NCBI GenBank assembly: GCA_963621995.1
Contig: CAVFFZ010000002.1
Location: 41,166-105,165, forward strand
Length of the DNA stretch: 64,000 nt
DNA from: Lachnospiraceae bacterium
GTDB lineage: Bacteria > Bacillota > Clostridia > TANB77 > CAG-508
Reading direction: 5' to 3'
The notes below the pieces were generated by a model. It did not search any database. It was not told the DNA's origin and saw only the letters and a program-made list of their open reading frames with translations. Of this stretch, positions 1-63,691 are shown piece by piece (the first letter of the stretch is position 1; each line of letters begins with the position of its first letter). Both the position numbers and the translations under genes were made by a program.

Positions 1-593
1 ATTTAGTAAAACTATTAAATGGTGAAGAAATAGAAGTTCCAACATTTGACTTCAAAAAAGGAATAAAATATTATACAGGGAAAACAATGAAACTAGAAGA
101 GGACGAAGTACTTGTAATGGAAGGAATACACTGCTTAAACGATAAGCTAACACCAGCAATAGATAAAAAACAAAAATTCAAAATATATATTAGTGCTTTA
201 ACAGTATTAAACATAGATTATTACAATAGAATTTCAACTACAGACACAAGAATAATAAGAAGAACAGTTAGAGATAGTCAATTTAGAGGATATGAAGCCT
301 TGAGAACATTATCTTCTTGGTATTCTGTATCAGCAGGGGAAGAAAAATATATATTCCCATTCCAAGAAGATGCAGACGTAATGTTTAATACATCACTTGT
401 ATATGAGATAAATGCGTTGAAAAAATATGCATTACCGCTATTTAGCCAAATAGGAAAAGAAGAAAAAGAATATGCAGAAGCAAAAAGATTAACAGAATTT
501 TTAAAATACTTTGAACAAATAGATATAGAGGACATTCCTAAAAATTCTTTATTAAGAGAATTCATAGGAGGAGGCATTTTCAATTACGACTAA
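1..593 (+). CDS. Nucleoside/uridine kinase family protein, C-terminal part (5' end is upstream of the window)
   Basis: The frame is open from the window edge into ORF 87..593. The motif run ...EGIHCLND...TDTRIIRRTVRDSQFRG... resembles long-form uridine kinase/PRK-family proteins. TAA stop at 591-593. Confidence 0.7.
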   Translation, partial: LVKLLNGEEIEVPTFDFKKGIKYYTGKTMKLEEDEVLVMEGIHCLNDKLTPAIDKKQKFKIYISALTVLNIDYYNRISTTDTRIIRRTVRDSQFRGYEALRTLSSWYSVSAGEEKYIFPFQEDADVMFNTSLVYEINALKKYALPLFSQIGKEEKEYAEAKRLTEFLKYFEQIDIEDIPKNSLLREFIGGGIFNYD

Positions 594-880
594 AAGGACA
601 TTTGGGGACGGGTCACTTTTGTCCTTTGTGAATTTTTGAGAATATAATAAAAAACCATATAAATTTTCAAAAAATGCTCGTTCAAGCTAAGTTACGCAGA
701 AATTATAATCGAAATTTGTGGCACCCTTCCATTAAAAAAATGAACTCTTTCCACAAATTTCTCAATAATTTCTAGCTTACTTACTTTCTAATAGTGCTTT
801 TTTTCAAATTAATATGCTTTTTTATTATAATTATTACTTTATGTAAAGGACAAAAGTGACCCGTCCCCAAATGTCCTTTT
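592..880 (+). repeat. Family A nested-palindrome repeat, copy E1 (MITE-like): terminal hairpin, L arm, core(+), R arm, terminal hairpin
   Basis: The ends are 35-nt inverted repeats: aaaggacatttggggacgggtcacttttgtccttt (593-627) and its reverse complement (846-880). Internal inverted repeats are tataataaaaaaccatat (643-660) and atatgcttttttattata (812-829). The core folds as a long imperfect hairpin (gaaatttgtgg / ccacaaatttc). Further copies lie at 1222-1494 and 62901-63294. Confidence 0.9.
803..831 (+). promoter_or_regulatory. Outward-facing sigma-A-like promoter spanning the core/R-arm junction of E1; probable promoter of the RNHCP gene
   Basis: TTCAAA (803-808), 17-nt spacer, TATAAT (826-831). 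No other promoter-like sequence lies between the upstream gene's stop and the ATG at 907. Confidence 0.45.
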
Positions 881-906
881 AGATGGTGTGAAGAAAGGGA
901 AAATAA

Positions 907-1215
907 ATGGAAAGAAAATTTACTGAAATAGATGAAGAATTTGTTTGTGAAAATTGTGGTAAAAAAGTGCCACCATTAGGATATTCTTGTAGAAATCATT
1001 GCCCACATTGTTTGCATTCAAAACATGTAGATATAAACCCAGGAGATAGAGCAGAAGAATGCCATGGAATATTAGAGCCAATTGGGCTAGAAATAGATAG
1101 TAAAAAAGGATATGTAATAATATTTAAATGTAAGAAATGTGGAAAAATTAGAAAAAATAAAGCTGCAAAAGATGACAATATGGATTTAATAATAAGTCTA
1201 AGTGCGAAACATTAA
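907..1215 (+). CDS. RNHCP domain zinc-ribbon protein
   Basis: Contains a literal RNHCP motif (SCRNHCPHCLHSKH) and several CxxC pairs. A purine-rich RBS (gaagaaaggga) lies upstream. TAA stop. Bracketed by repeat copies E1 and E2. Confidence 0.75.
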   Translation: MERKFTEIDEEFVCENCGKKVPPLGYSCRNHCPHCLHSKHVDINPGDRAEECHGILEPIGLEIDSKKGYVIIFKCKKCGKIRKNKAAKDDNMDLIISLSAKH

Positions 1216-1221
1216 ACTGTT

Positions 1222-1494
1222 AGGGGGACGGGTCACTTTTGCCTCTTGTAAATTTTTGATAATATAATAAAAAGCATATTAATTTGAAAAAAAGCGCTAT
1301 TAGTAAGTAAGCTAGAAATTATTAAGAAATTTGTGGAAAGAGTTCATTTTTAATGGAATGGTGCCACAAATTTCGCTTATAATTTCTGCGTAACTTAGCT
1401 TGAACGAGCATTTTTTGAAAATTCATATGCTTTTTTATTATAATTGTTACTTTATGTAAAGGACAAAAGTGACCCGTCCCCAAATGTCCTTTTT
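1222..1494 (+). repeat. Family A repeat, copy E2: truncated left hairpin, L arm, core(-), R arm, terminal hairpin
   Basis: The L arm (tgtaaatttttgataatataataaaaagcatat) and R arm (atatgcttttttattataattgttactttatgtaaagg) match E1 in the same left-to-right order. The segment between them (about 1280-1424) is the reverse complement of the E1 core. The right hairpin (1458-1494) overlaps the stop codon of the convergent U32 gene. Confidence 0.9.
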
Positions 1495-8805: not shown

Positions 8806-8881
8806 GCTACTGTAGCTCAGTTGGTAGAGCAACAGATTCGTAACCTGTAGGTCGCCAGTTCGATTCTGGCCAGTAGCTCCA
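8806..8881 (+). tRNA. tRNA-Thr (anticodon CGU), CCA encoded
   Basis: Folded by hand. The 7-bp acceptor stem gctactg/cagtagc is perfect. D arm gctc-agttggta-gagc. Anticodon loop ttCGTaa. T arm gccag-ttcgatt-ctggc. Discriminator t followed by cca. Confidence 0.9.
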
Positions 8882-44732: not shown

Positions 44733-44767
44733 AAAGGACATTTGGGGACGGGTCACTTTTGTCCTTT
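44733..44767. repeat. Family A solo terminal hairpin (4 nt after the polA stop)
   Basis: aaaggacatttggggacgggtcacttttgtccttt is identical to the E1 left end and is followed by acataa, as in R arms. Confidence 0.9.
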
Positions 44768-46882: not shown

Positions 46883-46915
46883 AAACTGTTTTTTGCTCCG
46901 TCCCCAAAAACAGTT
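46883..46915 (+). promoter_or_regulatory. 5'-UTR hairpin with a C-rich loop (reverse complement of the GGGGACGGAGC loop type)
   Basis: 10-bp stem aactgttttt/aaaaacagtt with loop tgctccgtcccc. Ends 6 nt before the glyQS RBS aggagag. Confidence 0.6.
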
Positions 46916-51775: not shown

Positions 51776-51935
51776 ATATTCTAGGAATGTTCTCCAAACT
51801 TCCCTAGAATATAAAAAGCTTCGCTAAACATTCCACACAAATTTTATGTAATAAAATTTGGCGGTTGAACAAAGACGAGGCATGAAGAATTTTCTGAAAT
51901 GTCTAAAAATGGTAATCATGCTTCTTTTGCTCCTC
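51776..51935 (+). repeat. Family B repeat, copy B3, with complete head palindrome
   Basis: tattctaggaatgtt-ctcc-aaacttccctagaata, followed by the same body as B1. Confidence 0.9.
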
Positions 51936-51938
51936 AAC

Positions 51939-51972
51939 TAAGGACAAAACTGACCCGTCCCCAAATGTCCTA
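51939..51972 (-). repeat. Family A terminal hairpin (degenerate, reverse orientation) fused to the 3' end of B3
   Basis: taaggacaaaactgacccgtccccaaatgtccta. Confidence 0.8.
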
Positions 51973-51982
51973 TATGGAATTC

Positions 51983-59195: not shown

Positions 59196-59230
59196 AAAGG
59201 ACATTTGGGGACGGGTCACTTTTGTCCTTT
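59196..59230. repeat. Family A solo terminal hairpin (5 nt after the der stop)
   Basis: aaaggacatttggggacgggtcacttttgtccttt followed by acataa. Confidence 0.9.
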
Positions 59231-62902: not shown

Positions 62903-63294
62903 AAAGGACATTTGGGGACGGGGCACTTTTGTCCTTTACATAAAGTAACAGTTATAATAAAAAACAAAAATCAAGATTTTGTATACAGTACAAACTACTA
63001 CAAAATCTTGATTTTGTCATATTTATCTTTTACAGAAAGTTGTCAAACTTTCTTAGAATATAAAAACATATAAATTTTCAAAAAATGCTCGTTCAAGCTA
63101 AGTTGCGCAGAAATTATAAGCGAAATTTGTGACACCCTTCCATTTAAAAAATGAACCCTTTCCACAAATTTCTTAATAATTTCTAGCTTACTTACTTTCA
63201 ATCCGCTTTTTCTCAAATTAATATGTTTTTATTTTTTATTTAAATAGCACTTTATGTAAAGGACAAAAGTGCCCCGTCCCCAAATGTCCTTTTT
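62901..63294 (+). repeat. Family A repeat, copy E3 (composite): hairpin, R'-arm, terminator-like hairpin, B-like/L arm, core(+), R arm, hairpin
   Basis: The ends are aaaggacatttggggacggggcacttttgtccttt (62903-37) and its reverse complement (63258-94). The core ...aatgctcgttcaagctaagttgcgcagaaattataagcgaaatttgtgacaccc... has the same orientation as in E1. Confidence 0.9.
62964..63020 (+). terminator. Long hairpin inside E3; likely terminator of the upstream gene
   Basis: Stem of about 19 bp: acaaaaatcaagattttgta / tacaaaatcttgattttgt. Confidence 0.5.
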
Positions 63295-63335: not shown

Positions 63336-63685
63336 GTGAGTAAATTGAATAGTCGCGTATAGCAAGGTCGAAAGACAGCGTACGAGGAAAGTCCGGGCTC
63401 CATAGAGCAAAGGTGCAAGATAACGTCTTGTGAGGGTAACCTTAAGGAAAGTGCAACAGAAAATAACCGCTACGAGAGTAGTAAGGGTGAAAAGGCGAGG
63501 TAAGAGCTCACCGCTTCTATGGTGACATAGAAGGCCAGTGTAAACCCCATCTGGAGCAACACCGGGACAAGAAGGCTAAGATTGCTCGTCATCTTCTTAA
63601 TCTGGTGGCTTTGAGCTACATAGTGATATGTAGAGTAGATAAATGACTATTCACGACAGAACCCGGCTTACAGATTTACTTATGA
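63336..63685 (+). ncRNA. rnpB: RNase P RNA (bacterial, type B-like)
   Basis: Universally conserved GAGGAAAGTCCGGGCTC near the 5' end and ACAGAACCCGGCTTA near the 3' end. P1 pairing agtaaat/atttact. The ends are approximate. Confidence 0.85.
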
Positions 63686-63691
63686 TATATG

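Follow-up and report, generated by a model that had tools for sequence, protein, structure and literature searches.

Two neighbouring copies of an intergenic repeat, here called E1 and E2, raise the question of how the core of one can face the opposite way from the core of the other when the arms around both run in the same order, and of whether such a reversal is the work of a dedicated invertase. Both lie in a 64,000-nt stretch of DNA (the window, meaning the whole stretch that was analysed) from an uncultured gut Clostridia lineage with 27% G+C; the window is identical in GCA_963656305.1 and shows 0 mismatches to the independent record L031. E1 and E2 stand in direct order, separated by 630 bp, and are sister copies of an interspersed repeat without genes, a nested palindrome that is MITE- or REPIN-like (Table 1). 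They measure 273-293 nt, carry terminal inverted repeats and have no coding capacity.

The element is built of three concentric inverted-repeat shells: an outer hairpin repeat of 35-42 nt (T), an inner A/T-rich repeat of 17-32 nt, and a quasi-palindromic 150-nt core hairpin whose tip holds a conserved asymmetric 8x8 internal loop. Asymmetry is confined to this tip and to two 15-nt spacers. In E1 the terminal inverted repeat is perfect over 38 nt (590-627/845-882), the inner repeat extends imperfectly to 674 (643-674/798-829, 88%), and the whole is predicted to fold as a single hairpin (-75.5 kcal/mol as DNA, z = -15.3) in which the L spacer faces 830-844 in a 15x15 internal loop. The left outer repeat of E2 has lost its 5' stem half by a 31-nt deletion relative to strains L022 and L024. 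The only ORFs that overlap E2 look spurious.

Table 1. Repeat elements of the window and their parts.
Feature	Position	Strand	Setting or basis
E1, complete nested-palindrome element	590-882		between PRK-family gene (ends 593) and RNHCP gene (starts 907)
E1 outer repeat, left copy; T hairpin AAAGGACA-loop-TGTCCTTT, loop TTTGGGGACGGGTCACTTT	593-627	+	
E1 L spacer GTGAATTTTTGAGAA, arm-specific unpaired 15-mer	628-642	+	
E1 inner inverted repeat, left copy; switch zone TATAATAAAAAACCATAT	643-660	+	
E1 core hairpin, orientation '+'	661-811	+	profile HMM
E1 inner inverted repeat, right copy; complement of switch zone	812-829	-	
E1 R spacer (reverse complement ACATAAAGTAATAAT)	830-844	+	
E1 outer repeat, right copy (T')	845-882	-	
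Outward promoter-like site TTCAAA-17-TATAAT	803-831	+	76 nt upstream of RNHCP start codon; consensus match only
E2, second element	1222-1494		between convergent RNHCP (ends 1215) and peptidase U32 (ends 1493, minus strand) genes
E2 left outer repeat, truncated	1224-1247	+	comparison with L022/L024
E2 L spacer GTAAATTTTTGATAA	1248-1262	+	
E2 inner inverted repeat, left copy (TATAATAAAAAGCATAT)	1263-1279	+	
E2 core hairpin, inverted relative to E1, arm order unchanged	1280-1424	-	profile HMM, alignment
E2 inner inverted repeat, right copy	1425-1442	-	
E2 R spacer (reverse complement ACATAAAGTAACAAT)	1443-1457	+	
E2 outer repeat, right copy (T')	1458-1493	-	
Solo T hairpin	44733-44767	+	few nt past stop codon
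Solo T' hairpin	51939-51973	-	adjoins a different interior module
Solo T hairpin	59196-59230	+	few nt past stop codon
E3, third family member	62903-63292		45 nt upstream of RNase P RNA gene; core 63072-63218 (+), profile HMM

The original prediction held that E1 and E2 share both arms in direct order around a reverse-complemented core, with the switch points inside a 17-18-nt inverted repeat, and our comparisons confirmed this arrangement on each count. The right arms match directly (798-880 vs 1411-1493, 95% identity), as do the left arms (604-655 vs 1224-1275), and inverted matches were found at 643-738/1347-1442 (96 nt, 96%), 736-785/1302-1351 (50 nt, 98%) and 780-822/1269-1311 (43 nt, 95%). 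When the two cores were aligned globally, 140 of 151 positions agreed as reverse complements (93%) against 106 of 151 in the direct sense (70%). The spacers gave the opposite picture: those of the L arm agree at 13/15 positions directly and at 7/15 as reverse complements, those of the R arm at 14/15 and 7/15, respectively. Since L and R spacers match each other at just 7-8 of 15 positions, the two arms are truly distinguishable, and they are not interchangeable. A profile HMM of the core scored every copy in the window at 146-152 bits one way round and at 23-31 bits the other way; E1 reached 145.7 bits forward vs 23.4 in reverse (661-809, plus strand), and E2 scored 147.6 bits for the minus strand and 30.9 for the plus strand (1282-1424). 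The repeat pattern is not a product of chance, because the outer-repeat 18-mer occurs nine times in the window where 0 occurrences are expected. All four inner repeats of E1 and E2 carry a derived extra G/C that the canonical AAAAACATAT lacks. The most economical history to separate the two copies is an inversion across their inner inverted repeats.

Comparison of orthologous loci revealed that a segment enclosed by an inverted-repeat pair inverts in place in this family, repeatedly and recently. At the E2 site, an intergenic region of 326 nt, the core is '+' in strains L024, L029 and L058-60, and the whole interior is reversed ('-') in L020, L022, L074 and L075. The flanks of L020 ('-') differ from those of L024 ('+') at 0/850 and 1/309 positions, and from those of the other '-' strains at 17-24/850; L020 thus matches a strain of the opposite orientation and differs from those of its own, so that at least two flips took place independently. 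In a related element at this site the ~75-nt interior is inverted between L025/26 and L027/30/32, with one mismatch between the interiors (read by eye from the sequences), and flank distances do not separate the orientation states. In a sister species, the 234-nt interior of a homologous element is reverse-complemented, with 1-2 mismatches, between L046/47/51/52 and L049/50/53/54/55/76/77, and the partial contigs L078-80 have the left junction of the latter group. There the flanks of L051/52 and L050/53/54/55 show 0/1809 differences despite their opposite orientation, and both alleles of a SNP in the left terminal repeat are found with either orientation, which makes all four combinations. The repeats associated with these flips are four and unrelated in sequence: T, the AAACTAATAGGGACGGGCC type, AAAATAATYGTTTTTACAAGGTGTGAC and TATAATAAAAAASCATAT. 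Flips between strains occur at the outer repeat, and a flip at the inner repeat was seen only between the paralogous copies E1 and E2. Every alternative state recurs in at least two independent assemblies, with one orientation per assembly, and five sets of orthologous loci keep a constant orientation throughout the assemblies.

The elements also vary in presence. The E1 site lacks the element in L024, L029, L058-60 and L074, where only a solo T is found, and E1 replaced 26 nt of resident sequence without a clean insertion. At the sister-species site, L045-47/49-55 carry an element and L041-44/48 do not. No direct target-site duplication was found at E1, at E2 or at the sister-species insertion, and neither the window nor the orthologous loci examined contain an autonomous element with matching ends. 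A composite transposon carrying the RNHCP gene was considered and rejected, as this gene is at the locus in every strain, with or without elements. Since strains with identical flanks differ by insertion, replacement or inversion at these intergenic sites, the repeats are a rapid source of structural variation beside genes.

We regard the family as an undescribed, abundant repeat system of uncultured gut Clostridia. E3 has an R-type spacer (62938-62952) on the other side of the core from where it lies in E1 and an extra insert with a hairpin at about 62966-63055; it is identical in a second assembly (L056, found through the ATG-start protein of the gene upstream), with a single orientation in both. 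Exact-protein look-ups with the U32 peptidase and with a TTG-start version of the gene upstream of E3 found neither on record. Three of the nine copies of T in the 64 kb are solo, just past stop codons or beside another module, and at the 3' end of the gene followed by the solo T at 44733-44767 a full element stands instead in L010/L011. Conservation of T sits in its loop, GGGGACG(G/T), which is carried by at least six different stems; 74 of 114 GGGACGGG sites lie within stems of at least 6 bp, vs 5% of random positions. The core is more conserved than the arms, its asymmetric tip is kept across two species-level families, and its stem shows double changes in 8 of 28 pairs. The family is otherwise mosaic, with spacers that differ at almost all loci. 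A covarying hairpin with a conserved loop, together with a conserved asymmetric core loop, points to a putative protein or RNA partner. A conserved core peptide was rejected, for the 29-33-codon ORF from ATGCTCG has no ribosome-binding site and loops of 7 vs 9 nt shift its frame between copies. Likewise, the two 616-aa ORFs beside elements in L009 and L014 are not transposases but an M29-peptidase-like protein and a P-type ATPase, mutually unrelated.

Searches of Rfam 15 at gathering and permissive thresholds returned no family, the only matches being far-sub-threshold ones to generic long hairpins (plant miRNA precursors). IMG/VR scans with the exact outer-repeat 21-mer and the core-tip pattern gave no match, and a blastn search of phages and plasmids with E1 was likewise empty; nothing here therefore suggests a phage or plasmid origin. 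A JGI metagenome scan with an L-arm 23-mer yielded eight matches, all by chance in unrelated A/T-rich DNA, and no element.

Among known repeats, the Correia elements of Neisseria are MITEs, nested palindromes that bear promoters or terminators. The present family resembles them in being small, gene-less, intergenic and multi-copy, with terminal inverted repeats, insertion polymorphism among strains, outward promoter-like hexamers at the ends and subtypes set by alternative arms. It differs in the lack of a target-site duplication and of a known cognate transposase, in a core more conserved than the termini, and in termini that also occur as solo hairpins. To our knowledge, no Correia interior has been reported to flip in place. 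REP, BIME and REPIN repeats are reportedly mobilised by RAYT transposases (Nunvar 2010; Bertels and Rainey 2011); like them, T is a dense (nine in 64 kb), 35-nt extragenic hairpin that follows closely on stop codons and occurs either alone or as inverted pairs flanking a variable middle, which gives mosaic modular clusters. In T, however, the loop (GGGGACG..) is conserved and the stems vary, without a 5' GTAG and conserved stem, and the inverted pair encloses ~220 nt with a conserved core. No RAYT (Y1 transposase) gene was found among the 30 window ORFs scanned.

As to how the flips arise, recombination or template switching across inverted repeats is, at roughly even odds (about 0.5), our preferred reading over that of a dedicated invertase switch, because four unrelated inverted repeats are used and the arms are homogenised, as seen in the extra G/C shared by the inner repeats and in the double changes of the core stem. 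Flips would then be a by-product of the palindromic architecture and not the output of a dedicated invertase, arising by intramolecular recombination or by replication template switching between the repeat arms. E1 probably keeps the ancestral arrangement, with its core placed relative to the R arm as in L008/L009; in E2, an inner-repeat event in the lineage of this genome would have turned the core and left the spacers where they were. Plastid genomes offer a parallel, with recurrent small inversions associated with hairpins. Published cases of template switching across inverted repeats show that it both homogenises the arms and reversibly inverts the spacer or loop (PMC8604942, PMC8794818). 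As in these Ripley-type quasipalindrome events, the segment between the arms is here exactly reverse-complemented, recurrently and reversibly, the arms are homogenised and no specific site is needed. The published inversions, however, mostly concern loops of a few nucleotides, or a few to tens, whereas the segments here span 75-234 nt between arms of 17-42 nt, which weighs against this mechanism; the substrate also differs, being a mobile, multi-copy repeat that flips at two nested levels. The high flip rate, with opposite states beside identical kilobase flanks, is like that of programmed switches and counts against the favoured mechanism as well, as do an inner-repeat flip seen only between paralogues and the co-orientation of the core with its neighbours at six of seven co-directional sites. 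So does the GGGACGGG loop, which is present in two of the four flip repeats within covarying stems and looks like a protein recognition site, and so does a core that is more conserved than the arms and asymmetric at its conserved tip.

These last points fit a programmed inverton family, which we hold to be possible at clearly lower odds. A trans-acting site-specific recombinase encoded elsewhere in the genome, perhaps a master invertase like RecV or Mpi or else the enzyme behind the element's mobility, would flip the core and, at other loci, the entire interior; each copy would be a phase-variable switch with the conserved asymmetric core as its payload (a promoter, a terminator or a small RNA). 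The size classes agree, with a 150-nt core and repeats of 17-32 nt against 154 bp and 21-bp repeats in the C. difficile flagellar switch, which was likewise first seen by genome comparison (PMC5386303). The same work reports that RecV flips switches without recognisable repeat identity, so that dissimilar repeats can share one recombinase and the unrelated repeats used here are compatible with a single enzyme (PMC5386303). Both orientations occur in near-equal numbers among near-identical strains at three sites, the GGGACGGG loop and the core tip are conserved as described above, promoter-like hexamers are enriched (16 vs 6.1 +/- 2.1 expected), and orientation is biased at co-directional sites. 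More broadly, the family shares with invertons (C. difficile Cdi/RecV, PMC5386303; the Mpi-dependent promoters of B. fragilis; PhaseFinder-type surveys, PMC11892184, PMC11602134) an intergenic length of 100-250 nt, inverted repeats of 17-40 nt, both orientations of an outer-repeat segment at one locus in close gut relatives, several homologous copies per genome and promoter-like hexamers. Against this, and in agreement with the original statement that the window contains no recombinase gene, a Pfam scan of 30 ORFs from these 64 kb of the genome detected no recombinase, integrase, resolvase or transposase domain, and none was noticed beside any copy. Flips at four unrelated repeats and two nesting levels, an invertible part that is itself a quasi-palindrome with edges alike in both states, presence/absence polymorphism like that of mobile DNA, constant orientation at the five orthologous locus sets, and an arm homogenisation that conservative site-specific exchange does not produce all set the family apart from invertons. 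Of the inverton-like footprint first proposed, the inversion itself stands, as the most economical history and with in-place flips at orthologous loci; its reading as a programmed invertase switch fares worse, given the four unrelated repeats and the lack of a recombinase domain in the 30 window ORFs scanned. A more specific version, in which the elements are transposable, self-contained switches whose trans-acting recombinase reads the GGGACGGG loop and/or the inner repeat and flips the core, or elsewhere the whole interior, seems to us unlikely; the core might then act as a small RNA, or as a terminator or promoter whose effect depends on orientation.

It is less probable still that the core never inverted in this lineage and that pre-existing opposite copies had their arms made alike by gene conversion or modular reshuffling. 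Neighbouring copies would convert each other, anchored in the shared T and inner repeats, as the spacing and direct order of E1 and E2 favour; the mosaic spacers, the pairing of an R-type spacer with an unrelated insert in E3, the solo T hairpins and the displacement of resident sequence by E1 are in line with this. The E2 core, however, is of the subtype found in E1, L008 and L014 (GTTACGCAG, TAATAG) and not of the one that L020/22/24/29/58-60/74 carry at the E2 site; an E1-like source therefore supplied the entire interior and not the arms alone, and arm-only conversion is an insufficient explanation. Conversion also needs two short tracts, each ending precisely inside a 17-18-nt repeat, where one inversion would do, and in-place inversion is documented directly in the family. 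Finally, all data are metagenome assemblies or MAGs and several short contigs end inside elements, as would be expected if the opposite orientations were assembler artefacts at inverted repeats; the chance of this is nonetheless minimal, as the repeats (17-42 nt) are shorter than final k-mers and reads, and the states are reproduced by different assemblers (window = L031; L025 = L026; L027 = L030 = L032; L024/29/58-60; L020/22/74/75; L049/50/53-55/76/77).

If interspersed palindromic repeats flip their interiors fast without an invertase, gut metagenome surveys that work from reads will score them among the phase-variable switches, and inverton surveys need to recognise such flips and set them apart from regulated ones. 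Were the flips enzyme-driven, the element would be a switch module that spreads by transposition and, as a mobile inverton, a spreadable genome-wide phase-variation system for this uncultured lineage. Among the papers searched, none linked miniature inverted-repeat elements with invertons. The R arm bears only an eye-level likeness to dif/Xer sites and to the C. difficile flg repeat, in A/T-rich sequence.

With respect to neighbouring genes, the outward promoters of the original prediction are in place as hexamers in both copies (TTGAAA-18-TATAAT at 1415-1444 in E2), but the mirror sites of the L arm have weaker -10 boxes (TATATT), and the arrangement is not conserved in other family members, whose spacer lengths differ. 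An inward promoter, TTGTCC-18-TATAAT, occurs at all four E1/E2 arms and was rejected as a family feature, given T-to-TATAAT distances of 12-26 nt elsewhere. The fixed TATAAT receives a similar -35 hexamer in either core orientation, TTCAAA or TTGAAA, and therefore no ON/OFF logic is evident, which, like the lack of conservation across the family, is a further point against a programmed switch. Because the core is quasi-palindromic, either orientation gives the flanks similar hexamers and A-tract/hairpin/T-tract ends, so that a flip probably alters expression little, and flips may be close to neutral for elements flanked by convergent or divergent genes. At co-directional sites, the core is co-oriented with the neighbouring genes in six of seven cases; orientation may therefore matter.

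Comparison of E1 and E2, two copies of the gene-less nested-palindrome repeat, with a repeat finder and global alignments confirmed the original prediction that the core is reversed between them while the arms keep their order. The repeat finder returned the right arms as direct repeats (798-880 and 1411-1493, 95%), and likewise the left arms, from 604 and 1224 onwards, while the middle was recovered as three inverted blocks: 643-738/1347-1442 (96 nt, 96%), 736-785/1302-1351 (50 nt, 98%) and 780-822/1269-1311 (43 nt, 95%). When globally aligned, the cores (661-811 and 1280-1424) were identical at 140/151 positions as reverse complements and at 106/151 in direct orientation. The 15-nt L and R spacers are distinct from each other (7-8/15 in every cross-comparison) and stayed in place between E1 and E2 (L 13/15, R 14/15). 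As anticipated, the switch from direct to inverted similarity falls in the inner repeat TATAATAAAAAA(S)CATAT. A profile HMM of the family cores detected exactly three copies in the window, at 661-809 (+), 1282-1424 (-) and 63072-63218 (+), each scoring 146-152 bits in its own orientation but 23-31 bits in the opposite one. No mismatch was found over the overlap with an independently stored contig (GCA_963656305.1, CAVKHR010000001.1), and the core flip between E1 and E2 is a solid observation.

Next to the window copies, we used the RNHCP protein, encoded between E1 and E2, to retrieve the orthologous locus in many assemblies (loci numbered with the prefix L). At three sites the enclosed segment was present in both orientations with flanks and terminal repeats unchanged. 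At the E2 site, where the spacer is 326 nt long, L024, L029 and L058-60 have a plus-strand core, while in L020, L022, L074 and L075 the whole interior, including the spacers, is reverse-complemented. Since the flanks of L020 match those of L024, in the opposite state (0/850 and 1/309 mismatches), and not those of strains of its own orientation (17-24/850), the flip at this site happened more than once. A related element at the E2 site has a ~75-nt interior inverted between L025/26 and L027/30/32; judged by eye from the printed sequences the two versions are one mismatch apart, and the flanks are 99.3-99.6% identical, equally within and between states. The third case is the sister-species element, found in state A in L046/47/51/52 and in state B in L049/50/53/54/55/76/77, with a 234-nt interior that is an exact reverse complement save 1-2 mismatches; three partial contigs ending inside it (L078-80) have a left junction of the state-B type. 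Flanks of L051/52 and L050/53/54/55 showed 0/1809 mismatches. Each allele of a SNP located in the left terminal repeat is found with each orientation (all four combinations), which argues for recurrent exchange inside the repeat and not for excision and re-insertion. Every state was seen again in independent assemblies, so the flips are not assembly errors, and the population evidence for flipping in place is stronger than the original prediction could know.

Despite the 0/850 flanks, the T arms (outer repeats) of L020, whose interior is flipped, carry several substitutions relative to L024, which could reflect mutation or conversion associated with the flip. Among the CAKPAW and CAKPHG MAGs, the whole element is inverted in L003 and L012 compared with L016, relative to a shared 0.7-3.7-kb flank. 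This flank is the 3' part of large paralogous genes, and L003 and L016 lie on one contig; a flip, or two copies of the element having rearranged with each other, may account for the inversion.

The R-type spacer lies opposite the ATGCTCG end of the core in E1, L008 and L009, and on the ATGCTCG side in E2 and E3, so both arrangements exist; that of E1 is shared with its closest relatives. The E2 core carries the markers GTTACGCAG and TAATAG of the E1/L008/L014 subtype and lacks the markers of the resident element that occupies the E2 site in eight further assemblies. Because its core is E1-like and not of the resident type, the whole E2 interior would have been acquired from an E1-like source and afterwards inverted at the inner repeat. 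Conversion confined to the two arms is a less probable rival: it requires two short tracts, each ending within the 17-18-nt repeat, and leaves the E2 core subtype unexplained.

Occupancy also varied. In L024, L029, L058-60 and L074 the E1 site is occupied by nothing more than a solo T and 26 nt of different sequence; further strains have other contents there. The sister-species site upstream of the U32 peptidase gene is empty in L041-44/48, whereas L045 has one variant of the element and L046-55 a second with different terminal repeats; the states are separated by as little as 1-4 mismatches per 1.8 kb of flank. Moreover, two lineages with flanks 10% apart share an identical 234-nt interior. 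Given differing occupancy amid near-identical flanks and an identical interior amid divergent ones, the elements are mobile or are easily exchanged. Target-site duplications were absent from E1, E2 and the sister-species insertion; at the right end of the last, 10 nt of the left flank are instead repeated in inverted orientation. L052 contains an additional 106-bp nested insertion at the RNHCP-U32 site, and a conserved cysteine-rich ORF of ~50 aa on the opposite strand adjoins the insertion site between these genes in the sister species (L041-L055, L064-L073).

The outer inverted repeat of E1 is perfect over 38 nt and encloses unpaired 15x15 spacers, an imperfect 32-nt inner repeat and, at the centre, a long core hairpin. 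The whole of E1, folded as single-stranded DNA, reaches -75.5 kcal/mol (z = -15.3 against shuffles). T is itself a hairpin (AAAGGACA / TTTGGGGACGGGTCACTTT / TGTCCTTT). Across the fetched loci, the GGGACG loop motif was enclosed at 74/114 sites by a perfect stem of 6 bp or longer, compared with 5% of random positions, and one loop was combined with at least six different stems, a pattern that marks T as a hairpin whose loop is conserved while its stems covary. Extragenic hairpins with the loop GGGGACG then G/T form a superfamily, often right after stop codons, whose fully paired stems number at least six (GGACA, AAACTAA, TGCGCA, AACTGTTTTT, TAAATTTT and GAAGCAA); it suggests a putative loop-recognising protein partner. 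The left end of E2 (1215-1247) has a 31-nt deletion relative to L022/L024 that joins a degenerate neighbour hairpin (ACTGTTAG) to the T loop (GGGGACGGG), as would result from loop-to-loop recombination of two adjacent T-like hairpins. The module AAACTTYCYTAGAATATAAAAA is common to an extra insert of E3 (~63035-63060) and the DNA beside a solo T' (~51800-51830), which points to possible modular reshuffling among several repeat types.

Coordinates of the element, its hairpins and RNA genes
Feature	Position	Remarks
E1	590-882	nested palindrome: outer repeat, spacers, inner repeat, core hairpin
Solo T	44733-44767	few nt past stop codon
Solo T	59196-59230	few nt past stop codon
Solo T'	51939-51973	beside another module
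Loop-hairpin superfamily, window	593-627, 44733-44767, 59196-59230, 51939-51973, 62903-62937, ~46884-46915	
Loop-hairpin superfamily, other loci	L001, L003, L009, L024, L025-32, L061-63	
tRNA gene	8806-8878	
RNase P RNA gene	63337-63686	class A, 269.7 bits; begins 45 nt past E3 end

Flips occurred at four repeats that have no common sequence, at two nesting levels. A derived additional G/C is present in all four E1/E2 inner-repeat copies (AAAAAASCATAT; canonical form AAAAACATAT). When one change is found on the two arms of an inverted repeat, it indicates that one arm has been copied from the other. Such arms are known to be homogenised by template switching, which can also invert the spacer or loop reversibly (PMC8604942, PMC8794818). 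On account of the unrelated repeats, the copying between arms and this precedent, the reading we prefer, with a probability of about 0.5, is that the palindromic architecture itself causes the flips through recombination or template switching, although known template-switch inversions are much shorter than the flips of this element. A trans-acting recombinase is a serious, if less probable, rival: the flip rate in this family is high, the conserved T loop resembles a protein-binding site, and RecV of Clostridioides difficile inverts switches whose repeats show no recognisable identity (PMC5386303). As originally noted, the window yielded no recombinase domain among the 30 ORFs scanned, which are housekeeping and polysaccharide-synthesis genes; this result covers the window only.

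The earlier inverton-like description holds for a segment flipped between inverted repeats; an invertase-driven switch, defined by a recombinase and by mixed orientations within one sample, is less well supported, as no recombinase was seen in the window. In its behaviour the element probably resembles inverted-repeat spacer inversion on a MITE/REPIN-like repeat, and in appearance an inverton. It differs from a textbook MITE in having neither a target-site duplication nor a known transposase, and from RAYT-associated REPs in being devoid of their GTAG-plus-stem signature. A full-text literature search returned no paper connecting miniature inverted-repeat elements with invertons.

Scanning one genome per species with a core 20-mer placed the element in a few uncultured gut Clostridia MAGs and nowhere else, apart from one chance match; G+C in the window is 27%. 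Rfam contains no matching family, blastn of E1 against phage and plasmid collections found nothing similar, and the exact T and core-tip patterns were absent from IMG/VR. The usual family form, core-oriented, is T-ACATAA..variable spacer..-TATAATAAAAACATAT-core-ATATGTTTTTATTTT..variable spacer..TTTATGT-T', with the core conserved far above the arms. The sister-species element has other terminal repeats (AAAATAATYGTTTTTACAAGGTGTGAC) and a homologous core (HMM E ~1e-15, one direction only). The consensus core hairpin has 28 pairs, in eight of which both sides have changed and still pair. Its tip (~718-760 of the window core 661-811; L046 counterpart of the core at 2129-2274) has an internal loop, invariant and asymmetric (8x8), made of CACCCTTC on one side and AACTCTTT on the other and kept between two families whose stems diverged with compensatory changes. 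Both motifs are pyrimidine-rich on one strand, and as RNA they would be anti-Shine-Dalgarno-like motifs.

Promoter-like hexamer pairs were enriched between 500 and 1700 (16 against 6.1 ± 2.1 expected). The TTCAAA/TTGAAA-17/18-TATAAT sites proposed as outward promoters are present, but their spacing depends on a spacer length specific to E1/E2; inward TTGTCC-18-TATAAT sites rely on the T-to-TATAAT distance, 12-26 nt in other copies. Because E1 replaced the DNA upstream of the RNHCP gene in the window strain, its 803-831 site may be a promoter now serving that gene. The core may act as a two-way terminator, since it is an A-tract/long hairpin/T-tract unit. At 6/7 sites whose neighbours are co-directional, the strand of the core that reads ATGCTCG is also the one that codes for both neighbours, a suggestive bias in small numbers; between convergent or divergent neighbours the core lies in both orientations. 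Among the long ORFs of the window, 41/45 are on the plus strand, and a polysaccharide cluster with glycosyltransferases, a Wzt-type ABC transporter and rhamnose-pathway genes spans 13.7-38 kb.
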